This document shows positions 1-9,772 of a stretch of 11,805 nt of DNA, piece by piece. The stretch is from Candidatus Hermodarchaeota archaeon (GTDB taxonomy: Archaea > Asgardarchaeota > Lokiarchaeia > Sigyniarchaeales > SOKP01). Numbering within the stretch: position 1 is the stretch's first letter; every line of letters begins with the position of its first letter. Position numbers and translations under genes: made by a program. The DNA lies in NCBI GenBank assembly GCA_048885925.1, contig JBHLLG010000090.1, positions 1 through 11,805 of the forward strand, read 5' to 3'. Under the pieces are notes generated by a model. That model had not been told where the DNA came from. It saw only the letters and a program-made list of their open reading frames with translations, and made no database searches.

Positions 1-558
1 AGAGGGAAACCAGAAGATTATCGCTATAAAGCGATGAGAGAAAGATGGGGAACTAATGTAGTTTTAAAGAGTCTTACAAAAATATATATTTTTCAAGGTA
101 TTGTTATCTTTATAGTTGCTTTCCCTGTGTGGTTTACTAACATCAGTACTAATCCCTCCATTAATAACCTTTTAGACTTTTACGGAATTACTTTATGGCT
201 TGGAGTAATAATTTGGATTATAGGGTTCTTATTTGAAACTTTTGGAGATTATCAGTTATATAAATTCAAGCAAGATCCAAATAATAAAGGAAAAATATTA
301 GATCGAGGATTATGGAAATATTCGCAACATCCGAATTATTTTGGTGAAGTAACTCAATGGTGGGGAATCTATGTTATTACTATTGCTGTTCCTTTTGGAT
401 TCATTTCAATTGTAGGTCCAGTATTTATTACGTACATGATAATCAAAGTATCAGGTATCCGGTTATTAGATAAACATTATGAAGGTGACGATGACTATAC
501 CAATTATAAAAAAAAAACGCGTCTATTTTTTCCTTGGTTTCCAAAAAAGAGCAAATAA
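1..558 (+). CDS. DUF1295 family (steroid 5-alpha-reductase-like) membrane protein, 5'-truncated by the window edge
   Basis: Frame 1 is open from base 1 (RGKPEDYRYKAMRERWG), so ATG 34 is internal. It carries the family motifs EDxRY, ETFGDYQLYKFK, GLWKYSQHPNYFGE-WWG and SGIRLL plus hydrophobic helices, and ends FFPWFPK. Confidence 0.85.
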   Translation, partial: RGKPEDYRYKAMRERWGTNVVLKSLTKIYIFQGIVIFIVAFPVWFTNISTNPSINNLLDFYGITLWLGVIIWIIGFLFETFGDYQLYKFKQDPNNKGKILDRGLWKYSQHPNYFGEVTQWWGIYVITIAVPFGFISIVGPVFITYMIIKVSGIRLLDKHYEGDDDYTNYKKKTRLFFPWFPKKSK

Positions 559-702: not shown

Positions 703-1608
703 GTGGAGCAAGAAAAAGCAACTTATGACACTAATGAAAATATATCGAATTCTATAATCAAAGAAGAGATTAATTTGCAATTACATTGGTATTTGCCTAT
801 ATTTTTTATAATTTATTTTGGTTCATTTTTAATTCCGGCGATCATCCTTATGATATTCATTATGTTTTTATATTTACCCTATTTCTTAGAAATAACTAGT
901 TTTGTTAATATTTTTACTAATCTACCATCTTTACTATCAGCTTTAACGTTACCTATCATAGTTATTGCATGCTATCTATTACATTTAGTCTTTATAGCAA
1001 TCATAACTCGCTGGTTTTGGAGATTTACAGAAAGGAAGTCCCCTTCAAAAGCGGGCATAATACCTCGAAATATCCCTAGTAAGACTCTAAACTATTATCA
1101 TCTTCGTTCTTTTGTAATAAAGTATCCTAAGAATGCTTTTTCACGAGGTCCCTTTCCATGGCTTTTAAAATGGATGTTTAATTTTGTGGGAGCTAACCAG
1201 GTTGGAAAAGGTTCTGTCATTGAAGAACAGGTCGCTGGAGATAGATTTGTTAAAATTGGAGAGAATTCATATATTGGGATAAATGCAGCGATTAGTTCAC
1301 ATGCAGTCGATGGAATTTTCGGTAATATTTCATTTGCCGAAATAAATATTGGAAATAATGTCACTACTGCCGGTTTTAATTGCATTGCTCCTGGTGTTGA
1401 AACTGGAGATAATTCATGGTGGTTACCCATGACTGGAGCTACAAAATATAATATTCTTTCTGGTAACAACCATTATTTCGGCACTCCTCTAAGAAAAATC
1501 TTTAAAAAGAAAGTTATGGAATATTTACAAATTACAGAAGAAGATCTAAAAAGAGCAGAAGGGCTAAGCAATAGTTCTATTGAAAAGATAAAAGGCAATA
1601 AAAAATAG
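703..1608 (+). CDS. Membrane-anchored left-handed beta-helix (hexapeptide-repeat) acyltransferase-like protein, paralogue 1 (His-containing)
   Basis: Two long hydrophobic N-terminal segments, linker PSKAGII...YYHLR...GPFPW, then hexapeptide turns (VGKGSVI, VKIGENSYIG, INIGNNVT, PGVETGDNS) with SSHAVDG and terminal YFGTP. Confidence 0.75.
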   Translation: MEQEKATYDTNENISNSIIKEEINLQLHWYLPIFFIIYFGSFLIPAIILMIFIMFLYLPYFLEITSFVNIFTNLPSLLSALTLPIIVIACYLLHLVFIAIITRWFWRFTERKSPSKAGIIPRNIPSKTLNYYHLRSFVIKYPKNAFSRGPFPWLLKWMFNFVGANQVGKGSVIEEQVAGDRFVKIGENSYIGINAAISSHAVDGIFGNISFAEINIGNNVTTAGFNCIAPGVETGDNSWWLPMTGATKYNILSGNNHYFGTPLRKIFKKKVMEYLQITEEDLKRAEGLSNSSIEKIKGNKK

Positions 1609-1624
1609 ATAAAATTAGGTAAAA

Positions 1625-2548
1625 ATGAGTGAAAAATCAGAAAATATAAAGGAAAATATGCTACAATTGGATTTAAATGCGACTAATATTGAAAAACCAG
1701 ATTACATGGTTGATTTTGTAACAACTAGCGCCATTAGCAAAATAGGATATAAATTTCTTATTTTTTATATACCGATCCTGTGGGTTTCAGGATATATGGC
1801 AGTTGCAGTTTTCTTTGATATTTCTAAACTAATTAATAATTGGATTATTACTATGTTTCTTTTGCCCATTTGGTTATTTGTTTTATATTTTATCTTCGTA
1901 TTTGGTATTGCGATTTTTACCAGAGCTTTCTTATTAATAATAAATATGATTCACAAACCTAAAGAAGGAATTTTTAAAGCGGAAGAGGGTAATAAAGATT
2001 ATGAATTCTGGAGATTAAGGGTGGAATTGAAGAAGTTAGTCTTTTGGCTTATGAATAATGGTCCATTGCCATGGATTGTAATGTGGGGCTTCAGGTGGAT
2101 GGGTATTCGTGTAGATTTCTCTAGTCATATGCATGATGCGTGGGCAAGTGGAGGATTCATTAAATTTGGTCGAAATGTTACTGTCGGGCAAGGTGCTGTT
2201 GTGATGGGTTCAATGGTGGTTGGGAAATATTTGATAATTAAAAAAGTAGTTCTTGGAGATCATACTGTTATCGGTGGCGTTTCTAATGTTTCTCCTGGTA
2301 GTAAAATCGGAAAAGAATCTGTTTTAGCCGCTTTTACTACAACTGTTCCAAATCAATTTTGTGAACCAGGATGGATATATTTAGGACCACAATTTGCCAG
2401 AAAATTAAAACCTAATAAATATGCTGAAGAACGAAGGGATATTATTTATAGAAAGGATGTGGACAAAGAGATTAAATATAAAGTTCAACAAGAAGTTAAC
2501 ATCGACGAGGATAAAAAATCATTATTAAATAATAATAAGGAGGAATGA
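1625..2548 (+). CDS. Membrane-anchored LbH acyltransferase-like protein, paralogue 2
   Basis: Two TM segments, PKEGIF...YEFWRLR...GPLPW, hexapeptide repeats (IKFGRNVTVGQGAVV, VVLGDHTVIG, PGSKIGKESVL), WIYLGP and a charged C-terminal tail. Starts 16 nt after paralogue 1. Confidence 0.75.
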   Translation: MSEKSENIKENMLQLDLNATNIEKPDYMVDFVTTSAISKIGYKFLIFYIPILWVSGYMAVAVFFDISKLINNWIITMFLLPIWLFVLYFIFVFGIAIFTRAFLLIINMIHKPKEGIFKAEEGNKDYEFWRLRVELKKLVFWLMNNGPLPWIVMWGFRWMGIRVDFSSHMHDAWASGGFIKFGRNVTVGQGAVVMGSMVVGKYLIIKKVVLGDHTVIGGVSNVSPGSKIGKESVLAAFTTTVPNQFCEPGWIYLGPQFARKLKPNKYAEERRDIIYRKDVDKEIKYKVQQEVNIDEDKKSLLNNNKEE

Positions 2549-2554
2549 AGATTA

Positions 2555-3403
2555 ATGTCAGTACCTTCAAGCTTAAAATGTGGACCTCACACTACCCTTG
2601 TTTTAGTTAAAAAAAGATATCTAATATTCTACATTTTCCTAATTTGGGTAAGTATTTTTTCAATACAATTTGAATTTTGGCTATTTTGGAAATTATATGA
2701 ACCAAAATTTATTCATTTTGTATTGTTTCTTCCTCTTTTAATATTTGTCATGTATATAACATCTATAGCTATATCATTAATTTTCGCAAAGATTTTTTTA
2801 ATTGTTGTTAATTTAATTCATAGACCACGTGAAGGTATATTTCTAAGACATCATTCCGATAAAAATTATAGATATTGGAGTATAAGGAGTGTTATAAAAA
2901 AATGGCCTTTATGGCTATCTCATAAATTTCCTTTTCCATTTATTGATAATATATGCTTAAAAATGTTTGGAATAAAAAATACCTATTCTAATTCTCTTTT
3001 TGAGGGATTTATTGATACTGAACTTATAGAATTTGGAAAGAATGTAGTAGTTGGTGAATCAGCTATAATCCAATCAGCAGTTATAGTTGGAAATTTATTT
3101 ATTATAAAAAAAACCATAATTGAAGATAATGTAATGATTGGGGCTCACAGTGTAGTTATGCCTGGAACACATATAAAAAAAAATTCTATTCTAGCAGGAA
3201 GTTCAATGACTACTGTAGGGCAAGTTTTAGATGAAGATTATATATATTTGGGAGCGCCAGCCAAAAAATTCAAAAAGAATGTATTCATAGAAGAAGGTTT
3301 AGAAGAGATAATTGAAAGACAATTTGAAGAAGATTTAATCTCAGATGTTCAATATGAAGATTTATATACTATGAGAAAGGATAAGCATACTCAAATCAAA
3401 TAA
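2555..3403 (+). CDS. Membrane-anchored LbH acyltransferase-like protein, paralogue 3
   Basis: Two TM segments, PREGIF...YRYWSIR...FPFPF, hexapeptide repeats (IEFGKNVVVGESAII, IIEDNVMIGAHSVVMPGTHIKKNSIL) and YLGAPAK. AGGAGG at 2538-2543; starts 6 nt after paralogue 2. Confidence 0.78.
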   Translation: MSVPSSLKCGPHTTLVLVKKRYLIFYIFLIWVSIFSIQFEFWLFWKLYEPKFIHFVLFLPLLIFVMYITSIAISLIFAKIFLIVVNLIHRPREGIFLRHHSDKNYRYWSIRSVIKKWPLWLSHKFPFPFIDNICLKMFGIKNTYSNSLFEGFIDTELIEFGKNVVVGESAIIQSAVIVGNLFIIKKTIIEDNVMIGAHSVVMPGTHIKKNSILAGSSMTTVGQVLDEDYIYLGAPAKKFKKNVFIEEGLEEIIERQFEEDLISDVQYEDLYTMRKDKHTQIK

Positions 3404-3450: not shown

Positions 3451-4245
3451 ATGAAAGTTGGATATGTTCAAACATCTCCTATTTTTGGAGAAAAAGAGAA
3501 GAATTTTGAGCAAATAAACAATTTAATTGGTGAAATAAAAGCCGATTTACTCGTTTTACCAGAATTATTTGCAACAGGCTATGCTTTTGTTTCAAAAGAA
3601 GAAGCAGAATCATTGGCTGAAGGATTGGAAGATCAAACAACTCAGTTTTTAATTAAATTATCAAAAAAGACTAAAGCAGCTGTTGTTGGAGGATTTATAG
3701 AAAAGGATGAAGAGACACTATATAACTCTGCTATGATTGTTTTTGATTCAAAAATATTAGGAGTATATAGAAAACTTCACTTATATTATAAAGAAAAATT
3801 GTGGTTTTCTCCTGGAAATAAACAACTTGAAATTTATAATGTAAATAATATAAATATAGGAATAATGATTTGTTTTGATTGGATATTTCCAGAAACGATT
3901 CGATCGCTTTCACTACTTGGAGCGGATATAATAGCTCATCCCGCTAATTTAGTATTACCCTACTGTCAAAATGCAATGGTAACTAGATGTTTAGAAAATC
4001 GTGTATATGCAATAACCTCAAATAGAATAGGGGAGGAAAAAAGAGGTGTAGATCATTTTAAGTTCACAGGACGAAGTCAAATAACATCCTATAATGGAGA
4101 AATATTATCTTCAGCCCCAAAACTGAATGAGTATATTGACGTAATTAATATAGACATTATGAAAGCGAGGAATAAAAATCTTAATGATTATAACAATTTA
4201 TTTAATGATCGACGCATAGAATTTTATCAAAAAACCTTAAGTTAG
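3451..4245 (+). CDS. Nitrilase / carbon-nitrogen hydrolase superfamily protein (amidase-like)
   Basis: Complete Glu-Lys-Cys triad contexts: LLVLPELF, YRKLHL, ICFDWIFPE. Also YNSA, RCLENRVY and NRIGEE...FTGRSQI. Confidence 0.92.
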   Translation: MKVGYVQTSPIFGEKEKNFEQINNLIGEIKADLLVLPELFATGYAFVSKEEAESLAEGLEDQTTQFLIKLSKKTKAAVVGGFIEKDEETLYNSAMIVFDSKILGVYRKLHLYYKEKLWFSPGNKQLEIYNVNNINIGIMICFDWIFPETIRSLSLLGADIIAHPANLVLPYCQNAMVTRCLENRVYAITSNRIGEEKRGVDHFKFTGRSQITSYNGEILSSAPKLNEYIDVINIDIMKARNKNLNDYNNLFNDRRIEFYQKTLS

Positions 4246-6363: not shown

Positions 6364-7179
6364 CTACGGTTGTAGTATCCCAGCAAAAGCTAACCAAGCT
6401 AACAGTGATTTTGCAACTAAACTTAAGATTATGTAAACACGTTCACCGAAGAGATAATCTTTCCAAGGTCCTACTCCTTTATATTGAAGTATCTGATTAA
6501 TGGCAAAACTATTGAATAAAACTAAATAGGTATAAAATATCCAATAGACGAAATCAGGTATACCCTCAGCATCTACACCATAAAAGTAACCAATAATGAC
6601 AATCCAAGGAATAGCACCAGAGATACATCCTAAAATGAAAGGCTTCCAGTTTGTTTTTTCTGTATACTGATTAACTAGCTCCATCATATAACCAAACATT
6701 ATCATCATAGCATTCAAAACAAAAATCATAATCAATGACCAAATGTCCCACACACCAAAAAGTAATGAAAGAAAAACTATCATAATTGAACTAGATAAAG
6801 CATATTCATACCAACGGTATGGATTAAAGCCCTTTTTAAGATGATTATTATATCTTTCATTCAATGGATAAGCGATTAAAAAATGAGCTAAAGCAGATAT
6901 TAGTAAGAATGAAGCCAAGACTGCTCCAAAATATGTTACAGTAAATAATACCTCAGGATTTGGATATATATTAAAAATATCAGGTGGAGTAAACTCATAA
7001 GTCAAATAAAAAGTATAAATATCTCTAGAGAAATTTAAAATCAGACCTACAGTCAACATTAATATTCCTTGTATCAAATGTAAGATACCCATATTCCGAT
7101 TAAACTTTTGCAAATAATCAAATGATATAGCAGAGCTTGCAATAATTTCTTGTCGTTCTTTAAAATTCATTTTAACCAT
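6364..7179 (-). CDS. heR: Heliorhodopsin
   Basis: Seven hydrophobic segments with the heliorhodopsin signatures LHLIQG (TM1 His), SALAHF (TM2 His), NPYRWYEYALSSSIM (TM3 Arg and Glu counterion), MIMFGYMME, FNSFAINQILQY, and GERVYIILSLVAKSLLAW (SxxxK retinal-binding Lys). ATG 7170 is an alternative start. Confidence 0.95.
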   Translation of the reverse strand: MVKMNFKERQEIIASSAISFDYLQKFNRNMGILHLIQGILMLTVGLILNFSRDIYTFYLTYEFTPPDIFNIYPNPEVLFTVTYFGAVLASFLLISALAHFLIAYPLNERYNNHLKKGFNPYRWYEYALSSSIMIVFLSLLFGVWDIWSLIMIFVLNAMMIMFGYMMELVNQYTEKTNWKPFILGCISGAIPWIVIIGYFYGVDAEGIPDFVYWIFYTYLVLFNSFAINQILQYKGVGPWKDYLFGERVYIILSLVAKSLLAWLAFAGILQP

Positions 7180-7462: not shown

Positions 7463-9103
7463 TTAAGTGTCTATTAAGTATAAAGGCCATTTTTTCAAAA
7501 TTCCTTTAGGGTTTTTACCACTTCTGACTTTTTCTAAAACATCTGAACGAGTTTCTAAAAAATTTACGGGATTTTCATTAATTAACCGGATATTAATTTG
7601 ATTATTTATAATAGCTTCTTTAAAATTATCATTTTTAATGCAATTGAGCAATATTCGATAATAATTTTTCAAATTTGAACAATTTTTCTTATCATTTGAG
7701 TAAAGAAACAAAGTGAATTGTTTATCTTTAACTTGATTATTTCGAAGTAATAGCAATGAATCAATTTCTAATTCGCATTTTTGCTTTATACAATTTAATA
7801 GAAATCGTGGTTCATAAATTTCGTAATTATTAAAATTAAAATAATCACCAGCATAGACATTATAATTAGGGGATATTAATATTTCTTTAGAAAGTTTGAT
7901 AGGATATCTTAATAGAAAATTAGATCGTAAAATTTTGCCATCTATTTGGGGAAGACCTTCATTTTTTTTGATTGAAATAATATCACCTATATCAATATTT
8001 ATTAAAGCTTTAGAACCATGGATTCGTGAAACATAGAGTTTTCCAATTTTACTTGTTGTTCTAGAAATTAATTCTTTTTTTCCTTTGTATTCTATCACAG
8101 GAATAGTTAAAGGAAAGATGTACATTTGATTTAAACGTGAAATTTCAAAATCTGCTTTATTTATACTTGCAGCAAAGGGTCCAATTTCTGAGGCTACATA
8201 AAGATTTGTAAATCTCTCTTTCCCTTTCTCCCATTTCATAAATTTACGAATTAATTCCCAATCTGAATTTGATAAAGAACTGATACTAAAGACTAATGTG
8301 CTTTTAGCTAGTTTTTCAGACAATCTTTTTTGAATTCCTTTTGAAACATATTCTATTCCTTTTTTATTAATTTCTGATAAAAGGGATTCTAAAACGGGAT
8401 TATGATTTGAATTAATTGAATTCATTGATTTTTTTATTCCACTTTGAAGCCTGTTAATATCTGCCCATCCTAAAATTGTAGTTGCGGGAGCAGAAATAAC
8501 GGAAATCTTTTCCATTGAAAGAATTTTTGACAAAATCTCTAAATTCTTTGAATTTTTATACTCATAAAATAAATAAGACCTAGGTTTAGTAATAGATAAC
8601 ATGATTCTTTGGGAAAATTCCGAGGAATACAGTGAGATGTATTCTTGTTCTTTATATGTTTGAATTCCATCCAACTTTAATCTAGAAGGGACAAAAATTA
8701 CGGCAGATGAATTTGAATTTAAACCACTAGATTCAAAAATAGCTTGCATGCCAGGTGCCCATTGCCTTTTAATAATATCTTTTGTCATTAGGAACCACTT
8801 TAACATCGCTATATTACTATTAGTTGTACCTGATGTATGGCAGAAAACGAATGAATTAGAATCTTGATTTTTTTCCAAAAAATCAAATAAATCTATTGAG
8901 AAGCTTCTTGAATCAGTTGTTTCAATCTTTATCCTATCCATGATATTCTCAATAGAGGATAGTTCTGAAAGTCTTAAAGCTAATTCTTCATATTCTTTGT
9001 TAGAACTTACTTCAAGCCAATCATACCAATTTATCTTTTTAATATCCGAAAAGGATTTATCGAATTCATCTTGAACTTTTCTATCAAAATCAAATGTCTC
9101 CAA
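7463..9103 (-). CDS. Divergent ANL-superfamily adenylate-forming enzyme, GH3 / PaaK / LuxE-like acyl ligase
   Basis: P-loop-like HTSGTT(x7)K, LYVASEIG (GH3-type YxASE) and IDIGDII (xGD) appear in the expected order in 546 aa. TTG start with AGGAGG SD at 9114..9109. Confidence 0.65.
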   Translation of the reverse strand: METFDFDRKVQDEFDKSFSDIKKINWYDWLEVSSNKEYEELALRLSELSSIENIMDRIKIETTDSRSFSIDLFDFLEKNQDSNSFVFCHTSGTTNSNIAMLKWFLMTKDIIKRQWAPGMQAIFESSGLNSNSSAVIFVPSRLKLDGIQTYKEQEYISLYSSEFSQRIMLSITKPRSYLFYEYKNSKNLEILSKILSMEKISVISAPATTILGWADINRLQSGIKKSMNSINSNHNPVLESLLSEINKKGIEYVSKGIQKRLSEKLAKSTLVFSISSLSNSDWELIRKFMKWEKGKERFTNLYVASEIGPFAASINKADFEISRLNQMYIFPLTIPVIEYKGKKELISRTTSKIGKLYVSRIHGSKALINIDIGDIISIKKNEGLPQIDGKILRSNFLLRYPIKLSKEILISPNYNVYAGDYFNFNNYEIYEPRFLLNCIKQKCELEIDSLLLLRNNQVKDKQFTLFLYSNDKKNCSNLKNYYRILLNCIKNDNFKEAIINNQINIRLINENPVNFLETRSDVLEKVRSGKNPKGILKKWPLYLIDT

Positions 9104-9241: not shown

Positions 9242-9772
9242 TTAGATAATACCATAAAGTCCGCTTTCAGAATCTTGGAAAATTGGTAAATGTGGCGGTA
9301 AATAGGTAAATAATATTAATGCTAATCCTAACCCTATAATAATTATCCATGAAACAATGCTTATCCATTGTTTAAGTTCATTTGATGAAATAATTTTATA
9401 ACTAACTAATTGGCCGATAATCACTCCAATAAAAAAGCTCAAAATGTCTATAATAAGAATTTCAGTACCAAGAATTGCTGTATATGAATAAAAAATAATT
9501 AATATAGTACCAATACTTATTAATGCCGCAACAGTCTTTCCAATGATAAAATTTTTTGTATCCTCTTTTATATAATTATATTCAATTAAAGAAAAGATTA
9601 TCAATGGCCAGTATGGAAGTTTTAAATGCTCCCAAACACTTTCATTAACTGCAGTAATCGCACCAATTGGAGGCCAAGAATATAACCATTCAAATAAGAA
9701 ATGGAATAATGTTCCAACGATAATTATAAATACAATACCTATTATTTCCCATTGTAATATTTTATTCTTCAT
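9242..9772 (-). CDS. DUF6512-like integral membrane protein
   Basis: About five hydrophobic helices with GTLFHFLFEW, VNESVWEHLKL, FYSYT and TYLPPHLPIFQD motifs (family recognised from memory). GGTGA SD at 9781..9777. Confidence 0.65.
   Translation of the reverse strand: MKNKILQWEIIGIVFIIIVGTLFHFLFEWLYSWPPIGAITAVNESVWEHLKLPYWPLIIFSLIEYNYIKEDTKNFIIGKTVAALISIGTILIIFYSYTAILGTEILIIDILSFFIGVIIGQLVSYKIISSNELKQWISIVSWIIIIGLGLALILFTYLPPHLPIFQDSESGLYGII

Follow-up and report, generated by a model that had tools for sequence, protein, structure and literature searches.

The closest described systems to the genes reported here are the NRPS-like synthetases of the Pls/PosA family (epsilon-poly-L-lysine and delta-poly-L-ornithine synthetases), whose C-terminal module comprises three units, each with two paired membrane helices, a linker and a left-handed beta-helix (LbH) of five turns, modelled in a pseudo-threefold arrangement on a base of six helices (PMC10522769). 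According to the accessible part of that 2023 paper on PosA, these are the only characterised members of their superfamily and polymerise diamino acids, the module had no experimental structure at that time, and its catalytic residues are unassigned (PMC10522769). We analyzed a window of 11,805 nucleotides (nt), positions 1 to 11,805 of contig JBHLLG010000090.1 (hereafter C90) in the 3.9-Mb, 181-contig assembly GCA_048885925.1 of Candidatus Hermodarchaeota archaeon, which contains three adjacent genes, A, B and C, whose products (P1, P2 and P3) each correspond to a single unit of this kind. We consider it fairly probable that the three proteins form a heterotrimeric, carrier-independent membrane LbH acyltransferase that has one active site and belongs to the superfamily of the Pls/PosA module.

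The three genes are separated by only 16 nt (A-B) and 6 nt (B-C) in the open reading frame (ORF) list, and GGAGG-type ribosome-binding sequences are found upstream of the A and C genes (coordinates in Table 1). Their products follow the same plan of membrane helix pair, linker and LbH. Each protein has two membrane-length hydrophobic stretches, at residues 29-68 and 70-106 of P1, 44-67 and 69-110 of P2, and 16-45 and 47-91 of P3, which places the helix pairs at residues 29-106, 44-110 and 16-91, respectively; P1 has in addition an N-terminal tail, and P3 a charged tail. The 30 residues past helix 2 of P1 include seven K/R and one D/E and, following the positive-inside rule, this basic segment suggests that the beta-helix lies on the cytoplasmic side. 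BLASTP aligned P2 with P3 at 34% identity over 249 amino acids (aa) (E 7e-47), P1 with P2 at 23% identity (E 8e-16) and P1 with P3 at 24% identity (E 8e-13). Judged from these alignments, A, B and C are true paralogues across the membrane helices, the linker and the beta-helix. The three proteins also share a G-I motif behind helix 2 that is followed by an aromatic-[YW]-x-[LI]-R stretch, a P-[FL]-P-[WF] motif (PFPW at residue 150 of P1, PLPW at 147 of P2 and PFPF at 126 of P3) and a Y-x-G end near the C-terminus (YFGTP, YLGPQ and YLGAP), while B and C carry an H-K-P-K-E-G and an H-R-P-R-E-G motif, respectively, after helix 2.

The only Pfam matches of the three proteins are hexapeptide repeats (PF00132), with P2 and P3 scoring 28.8 and 35.8 bits, over the 27-bit cut-off, and P1 scoring 16.8 bits, under it. 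A profile of A-type units matched Protein Data Bank (PDB) chains of LpxD (E 8e-8) and LacA (E 4.5e-7). Neither Pfam nor NCBIfam scans revealed an adenylation or thiolation (carrier) domain in P1, P2 or P3. The first-pass annotation of this DNA, made from the sequence alone, had described three adjacent, closely spaced genes of one architecture, with the motifs listed above and without fused adenylation or thiolation domains, in a probable archaeon. The ORF list, the hydrophobic stretches, the BLASTP alignments and the domain scans bear out this description, as do the source names of the close homologues of P3, which are Promethearchaeota, Lokiarchaeota and other Asgard archaea. A scan for promoters and terminators remained at chance level, with 21 promoter-like sites where 23.4 would be expected by chance and no terminators. 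A 123-aa antisense ORF within the A gene has an open counterpart in a relative (L037, 4244-4618, 199 bits); in all likelihood it is a by-product of conservation on the coding strand rather than a gene.

When P3 was used as query, all 40 genomes of the order gave matches, with 3 to 19 matches per genome within the genus. In a survey across the phylum, for which at most 14 candidates per genome were scored with a family profile, 81 of 201 genomes were positive at E<=1e-20; these included 40 of 40 genomes in the window's own family and some in seven other families, with none in the 19 remaining families that were scored. We surveyed gene arrangement in 17 fetched loci from 10 genomes. Five are complete split triplets in the order A-B-C. 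Two further split loci are incomplete: in L042 the fetched stretch starts within B, and any A gene upstream would lie outside it, and the N-terminus of B is missing in L028, where tblastn found no A gene either. Besides the split forms there are 13 fused AB genes, arranged one to three in tandem in loci of six genomes, and a C gene stands behind the last AB gene in all six AB clusters, as it also does on contig C71 of the genome studied here. Two loci (L031 and L032) carry a CA fusion followed by a B/C-like gene, and further CA fusions were found in the database (P0121-P0123); a homologue search limited to longer proteins returned three matches, all of them archaeal CA fusions. Finally, all three units are joined, in the order C-A-B, in P0124, a 797-aa protein encoded on a Promethearchaeota contig of 149 kb, and in P0126.

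Two regularities run through these arrangements. First, C is immediately preceded by B in each of the 11 loci compared, which come from 11 genomes of the genus. Second, A-B-C, (AB)-C, (CA)-B and C-A-B share one cyclic order. In other families of the order the arrangement is a doublet, an A-like gene followed by a B/C-like gene, in four of four loci; the neighbours of these distant doublets (aconitase-family, GatD-like asparaginase-family, adenylate kinase and GT4 glycosyltransferase genes) are not conserved and offered no clue to function. Since the right-hand end of the window continues in relatives into an AB...C cluster, C90 and C71 are probably adjacent. In one genome that is a single contig (G006) we noticed truncated units, namely the B gene of L028 (9150-9962), with no A upstream, a B tail ahead of a C gene (L029, 10754-11134) and a C fragment behind two AB genes (L030, 12778-13356). 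This suggests either recombination between paralogous copies or misassembly.

The genome studied here contains nine units in eight ORFs, distributed over four loci (Table 1), and exactly one unit in each of the four loci bears a histidine at a position that appears to be catalytic. In the window triplet this is His200 of A (bases 1300-1302). The histidine is invariant in A-type units, being present in 22 of 22 sequences of the A-type alignment, distant families included, and in 17 of 17 A units of the unit set. In the same set it occurs in only 1 of 12 B units, the other 11 having serine, and in 0 of 15 C units; the one B unit that has it stands first in the C5 doublet, the other unit of which lacks the histidine. 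The A profile aligns His200 with His115 of the E. coli galactoside acetyltransferase (1kqa), and likewise with the equivalent histidine of maltose acetyltransferases, a position that we take to be the catalytic base in galactoside/maltose-type acetyltransferases. Because only A keeps this catalytic-type histidine, a single active site per trimer is likely. A one-in-three pattern is also seen elsewhere: the histidine is in unit 2 of the fused archaeal proteins and of P0195, P0201, P0219 and P0255, and in the third unit (C3) of the Pls proteins P0256, P0266 and P0285.

The fixed gene order in relatives that the first-pass annotation had suggested looking for is thus present as B-C adjacency and as a single cyclic order. 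The variable copy number that it had named as speaking against a three-subunit assembly is found as well, in the form of triplets, AB plus C, CA plus B, doublets and singletons, but this variation is ordered, with one histidine-bearing unit in each set of the genome. Beside the C5 doublet, and abutting it, lies the gene of a 531-aa calcineurin-like metallophosphoesterase; the junction recurs in relatives as frames of about 780 aa with one stop.

Structure prediction is consistent with joint assembly. AlphaFold2 folded the C-A-B fusion P0124 into one compact chain (mean predicted local distance difference test score, pLDDT, 82.7; predicted template-modelling score, pTM, 0.84; 26-row alignment), in which every unit begins with two long helices, continues with a short strand and two more helices and ends in the beta-helix. 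The AlphaFold model of PosA shows the same order of elements, as far as it is described in the accessible part of the paper (PMC10522769). Foldseek searches of the PDB with the P0124 model returned single-unit matches to maltose/galactoside acetyltransferases, AntD and serine acetyltransferases (E from 3.7e-6; 4e-6 to 1e-5 for the maltose and galactoside enzymes and AntD), with template-modelling (TM) scores of at most 0.16 when normalised to the query, and a solved Pls-type module was not found in the PDB by sequence or by fold. Enzymes of the LacA/Maa class and the N-acyltransferase AntD are both the best solved folds and the best PDB sequence matches of the archaeal units; these CoA-dependent enzymes differ in being soluble homotrimers with three active sites and without a membrane hairpin or linker. 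When the cores of A, B and C from the window were predicted as a complex, the score was 0.46 (0.46, 0.46 and 0.51 in the individual runs), the best of three controls reached 0.01, and the outcome was graded as weak support; the runs agreed in at least 91% of contacts, with partner pLDDT of at least 68. In the calibration of this score, 58 of 80 solved complexes passed, as did 2 of 110 mismatched pairs, and passes at or below 0.60 comprised 7 of the 80 solved complexes and both passing mismatches. Taken with the fusions, the fixed order and the fold of P0124, this weak pass favours the earlier proposal that the three proteins assemble together.

We therefore propose the following working model, parts of which go beyond these data. 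A, B and C would be the subunits of one membrane enzyme of 1:1:1 composition, with the three beta-helices packed next to one another in the manner of ordinary trimeric hexapeptide acyltransferases and a membrane base made up of the six helices. The single active site would lie at one subunit interface, with His200 of A as the base, and a thioester would serve there as the donor of an acyl group to an acceptor located at or within the membrane. As the proteins have neither an attached carrier protein nor an adenylation domain, the donor would most likely be acyl-CoA.

The placement of this enzyme in the superfamily of the Pls/PosA module comes from profile comparisons. TIGR02353, the equivalog_domain model of the Pls/PosA terminal domain, is the best NCBIfam match of P3 (E 1.2e-10, 40.5 bits, residues 87-241 aligned to model positions 64-215) and of P2 (E 8.9e-5, 21.0 bits), and it also aligns with P1 (E 0.0061, 15.0 bits, residues 46-266). 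A family profile made from 44 unit cores and scored against 1.84 billion representative proteins gave 13,813 matches at E<=1e-3, 1,614 at 1e-10 and 155 at 1e-30, and 13 of the 150 matches listed had three matched stretches. This profile reaches true Pls/PosA proteins at E of about 1e-32 over three stretches, although nearly all of the score comes from the LbH part. Among these proteins, P0266 (1320 aa) and P0256 (1713 aa) have adenylation domains, score 589.8 and 471.1 bits with TIGR02353 and are matched in three stretches. The beta-helix half of the profile scores 44-56 bits on the best unit of each of four true Pls proteins, this unit being C1 except in P0269, where it is C3, as compared with at most 30 bits on the ordinary LbH proteins of the genome studied here.

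The profile also retrieved free-standing three-unit proteins that lack adenylation and thiolation domains (P0195, P0201, P0236, P0255, P0268 and P0219); they are recorded as unnamed hypothetical proteins. P0236 and P0255 are from Elusimicrobiota, P0268 (809 aa) is from the chytrid Obelidium mucronatum, and P0219 (960 aa) is a fusion with a short-chain dehydrogenase/reductase; the four that were scanned (P0195, P0201, P0219 and P0268) score 168-264 bits with TIGR02353, under its cut-off. P0264 (705 aa), which scores above that cut-off, was considered as a further stand-alone module and rejected, since it is marked "partial" and its cluster has a 1342-aa member. No account of split or free-standing forms, and no paper on free-standing three-unit proteins, was found in the literature searched, which did not extend to subscription papers and supplements; the name TIGR02353 was absent from it.

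These free-standing proteins resemble the archaeal units in having helix pair plus LbH units, three in number, without adenylation or thiolation domains; they differ in being single polypeptides, they fall on the Pls side of the tree described below, and none is characterised. For B and C, the resemblance appears to extend to the N-terminal halves of the units. When these halves were compared with hhalign, archaeal units of all types matched those of the free-standing proteins with E 1e-4 (reversed controls 0.14), as did B units (E 1.3e-5; reversed controls 0.18) and C units (E 4.6e-5; reversed controls 0.15), and the free-standing proteins in turn matched Pls units with E 2.5e-8 (reversed controls 0.46-0.53). 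The membrane/linker half of the archaeal units thus appears to be tied to Pls only through intermediates, the free-standing three-unit proteins. On the basis of these sequence comparisons, we conclude that the archaeal units have the superfamily and architecture of Pls/PosA, yet stand outside the Pls/PosA family proper. Judging by the P0124 model on the archaeal side and by the published description of Pls/PosA, the two appear to share three units of helix pair, linker and five-turn LbH on a six-helix base, and they also have in common one histidine-bearing unit per three (in P0256, P0266 and P0285). They differ in that the archaeal triplet is encoded by three genes of one unit each, three helix pairs alternating with three beta-helices in one chain being found in the relatives P0124 and P0126; in that the archaeal units lack adenylation and thiolation domains; and in the position of the histidine-bearing unit, which comes first in the triplet and in the middle of the C-A-B fusions, as against last in Pls.

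Table 1. Coordinates of the features discussed, given for the window unless another contig of the same genome is named.
Feature	Position	Strand	Remarks
Subunit A (P1)	703-1608	+	301 aa, GTG start
Subunit B (P2)	1625-2548	+	307 aa
Subunit C (P3)	2555-3403	+	282 aa
Carbon-nitrogen hydrolase (nitrilase superfamily)	3451-4245	+	Pfam CN_hydrolase 1.6e-39; NF040852 295 bits, cut-off 500
Predicted ANL-superfamily adenylate-forming enzyme (GH3/PaaK-like)	7463-9103	-	546 aa; AlphaFold2 fold and Foldseek
Antisense ORF within the A gene	1098-1469	-	123 aa
DUF1295 gene	34-558	+	Steroid-reductase/methyltransferase-like membrane protein
Heliorhodopsin gene	6364-7179	-	PF18761 E 4.4e-95; NF038020 329.5 bits
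DUF6512 gene	9242-9772	-	Membrane protein
LbH locus of the window			A, B and C as separate genes
LbH locus on C71			AB fusion gene (625 aa); it overlaps the beginning of a C gene of 316 aa whose product shares 60% identity with P3
LbH locus on C5 (L013/L014)	C5:9741-12950		Doublet in which one unit bears the His and the other is C-like, then a metallophosphoesterase gene
LbH locus on C1	C1:189565-190365		Single A-like gene
NRPS-like ORF on C21	C21:36428-42811	-	2127 aa; two AMP-binding and two PP-binding matches

Alternatively, the triplet may be a Pls/PosA-like polymerase, joining units that have been activated in trans, for example by a neighbouring ANL-superfamily enzyme, into an amide-linked oligomer or polymer and passing it to or through the membrane. 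We regard this as unlikely. In its favour, the layout is shared with the only members of the superfamily that the PosA paper, in its accessible part, presents as characterised, which polymerise diamino acids (PMC10522769), and two genes near the triplet also speak for it. One is an amidase-type carbon-nitrogen hydrolase whose gene starts 47 nt downstream of C on the same strand, and which follows C in six of seven split loci of the genus. The other, 4 kb from the triplet, encodes a 546-aa protein that has no Pfam match and whose named homologues are all Asgard "hypothetical proteins". The ESM Atlas provided a GH3/AMP-binding lead for this protein, its AlphaFold2 model (pLDDT 89.7, pTM 0.88) matched GH3.11/JAR1, PaaK1 and the acyl-CoA ligase BT_0428 in Foldseek (E 1e-10 to 2e-10, TM 0.40-0.54), and its H-T-S-G-T-T motif is invariant in 28 of 28 sequences. 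We therefore predict with high confidence that it is an adenylate-forming enzyme of the ANL superfamily. It occurs in 29 of the 201 genomes of the phylum, and all 29 are LbH-positive; in at least 15 of them, all from two genera, its gene shares a contig with an LbH gene.

The same two genes also supply evidence against a polymerase. The hydrolase gene, tried as a partner of the triplet, was set aside: among five genomes of the sister genus it is linked in one, lies on other contigs in three and was not found in one, and since its linkage is confined to part of the lineage, it is probably no obligate partner. The ANL enzyme is missing from 52 of the 81 LbH-positive genomes, and in 14 of the 29 genomes that have it no shared contig was seen among the LbH places listed (in 11 the listed places are on other contigs, and for three f21 genomes no places are listed). 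Its gene is on the opposite strand to the triplet, and GH3-type enzymes usually make the amide themselves. In addition, no carrier domain is linked to the triplet. The search for adenylation domains and carriers that had been proposed at the outset found 25 AMP-binding matches in the genome, none beside an LbH locus, and PP-binding matches only in one ORF on contig C21 that resembles a nonribosomal peptide synthetase (NRPS). Lastly, the archaeal units are not orthologues of C1-C3, as discussed below. We retain the ANL enzyme, as a lead only, as a candidate supplier of an activated acyl group to a triplet that we still regard as a probable carrier-independent acyltransferase. As to the remaining features of Table 1, the assembly that contains the NRPS-like ORF has a contamination estimate of 4.4%, the heliorhodopsin gene is syntenic with LbH loci in the genus, and the DUF1295 and DUF6512 genes flank the region and are likewise syntenic in the genus.

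A second alternative is that A, B and C are tandem duplicates, each of which forms its own homotrimer. There would then be three membrane acetyltransferases, each acting on its own substrate, and the genes would be neighbours only because they arose by duplication. Hexapeptide acyltransferases are typically homotrimeric, the genome studied here has the A-like singleton on C1, and some two-unit proteins, such as P0178 from Helarchaeota, carry the histidine in both units. Nevertheless, we find this explanation distinctly improbable. With the histidine missing from 11 of 12 B units and 15 of 15 C units, homotrimers of B or C would be without that base, and independent homotrimers would not account for the repeated fusion of unlike units in one cyclic order, for the folding of the fused C-A-B relative as one module or for the B-C adjacency in 11 of 11 loci.

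A third possibility is that the triplet arose by direct fission of a fused Pls-type or free-standing three-unit gene, such that A, B and C each descend from one unit. The three units with one histidine per set, as in Pls (C3) and the bacterial free-standing forms (unit 2), would fit, and the Pls C3 units score slightly best with the A profile (22.8, 7.1 and 15.0 bits with the A, B and C profiles for P0266, and 29.2, 15.3 and 21.5 bits for P0256). The unit tree gives a different picture. In a quick IQ-TREE search with 90 units, based on linker and beta-helix columns, 60 archaeal units fell on one side (support 89 in the Shimodaira-Hasegawa-like approximate likelihood ratio test, SH-aLRT), opposite the full set of 12 Pls units and all but one of the 18 free-standing units (80), the exception being a long-branch fungal unit that attaches beside the archaeal side. 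Within the archaeal side, A forms one clade (96), B and C are sister groups in a second one (96), and it is at the base of this second clade that the distant doublets attach with their second genes. Among the 90 units no correspondence of A, B and C to C1, C2 and C3 was found, so that a one-to-one orthology, which the histidine pattern had hinted at by pairing A with C3, receives no support, and the histidine-bearing unit stands at differing positions between the groups. Direct fission is accordingly very unlikely in our estimation.

Because the archaeal and Pls units lie on opposite sides of the tree, the A/B/C set appears to have diversified independently and not to be a broken-up Pls gene. 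The clades and the position of the doublets' second genes fit a likely ancestral pair of A and a unit X, and the path would be internal to Asgard archaea, with X later duplicated to give B and C. The first-pass annotation had equated the three units with the Pls module, encoded as separate subunits. What is supported of that proposal is the single architecture of the units, the TIGR02353 link and, as a likely feature, the joint assembly; the equivalence to a split Pls module is not supported, as the tree sets the 60 archaeal and 12 Pls units apart and shows no correspondence of A, B and C to C1, C2 and C3.

The diverged beta-helix subunits of mitochondrial complex I offer one more comparison. 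The gamma-carbonic-anhydrase/carbonic-anhydrase-like trimer there also consists of membrane-attached, diverged beta-helix paralogues, some without catalytic residues; it differs in belonging to a carbonic anhydrase-like subfamily, in having no two-helix hairpin per subunit and in being part of a respiratory complex. That A, B and C are similarly non-catalytic membrane scaffolds or sensors is highly improbable, for although two of the three units have lost the histidine and gamma-carbonic-anhydrase chains of complex I (7ar9, 7aqq and 8iuf) are among the PDB sequence matches, the histidine of A is invariant even in distant families and the nearest folds and profiles are those of acyltransferases.

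Several observations weigh against the heterotrimeric acyltransferase that we prefer, or against its tie to Pls/PosA. The TIGR02353 scores of P3, P2 and P1 (40.5, 21.0 and 15.0 bits) are all far under the cut-off of 423.1 bits, and the profile runs suggested in the first-pass annotation returned TIGR02353 as the best match of P2 and P3 with a similarity that lies almost wholly in the beta-helix. A hidden Markov model (HMM) of the membrane/linker half matches no Pls protein and only P0201 among the free-standing ones, with a weak score of 14 bits (E 0.008 among 3,722 targets). The best generic LbH enzyme in the PDB reaches 49.2 bits with the whole profile, PDB matches never starting before profile position 112, and so, by this measure, the tie to Pls (44-56 bits) is little stronger than the tie to ordinary LbH proteins. 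In the hhalign comparisons of N-terminal halves, A units against the free-standing proteins (E 0.022; reversed controls 0.15) and archaeal units directly against Pls (E 0.12-0.29; reversed controls 0.08-0.63) were not significant. The unit tree was built on columns aligned to the archaeal profile and with a short search, and some of its branches are long. As for the assembly and its single active site, the stoichiometry of the genes is not always 1:1:1, with two or three AB genes per C gene in L037 and L042, doublets in other families and one singleton in the genome studied here; the histidine is present in all three units of P0236, P0268 and P0269; and the complex score is a weak pass, which, since solved LbH trimers abound, may reflect likeness only.

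If our interpretation holds, these genes are a natural version, in three small separate subunits, of the kind of module that makes poly-lysine and related antimicrobial polymers, with one likely catalytic and two degenerate subunits, which would make it much easier to approach by mutation, co-purification and cryo-EM. They would also provide a stepwise record of how a pair of A and X became a three-subunit enzyme with a single active site, fusions having arisen in several orders. We give only a small probability to the further idea that a carrier-independent three-subunit machine, together with a dedicated ANL enzyme, makes an amide- or ester-linked surface polymer or lipid modification; if true, such an ANL-fed machine would be a free-standing form of the poly-lysine synthetase reaction centre, showing how it works without the NRPS parts. 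The LbH family is strongly expanded in one Asgard family, with matches in 40 of 40 sampled genomes and up to 19 in each, and represents an uncharacterised and notable element of membrane biology in the archaea most closely related to eukaryotes.

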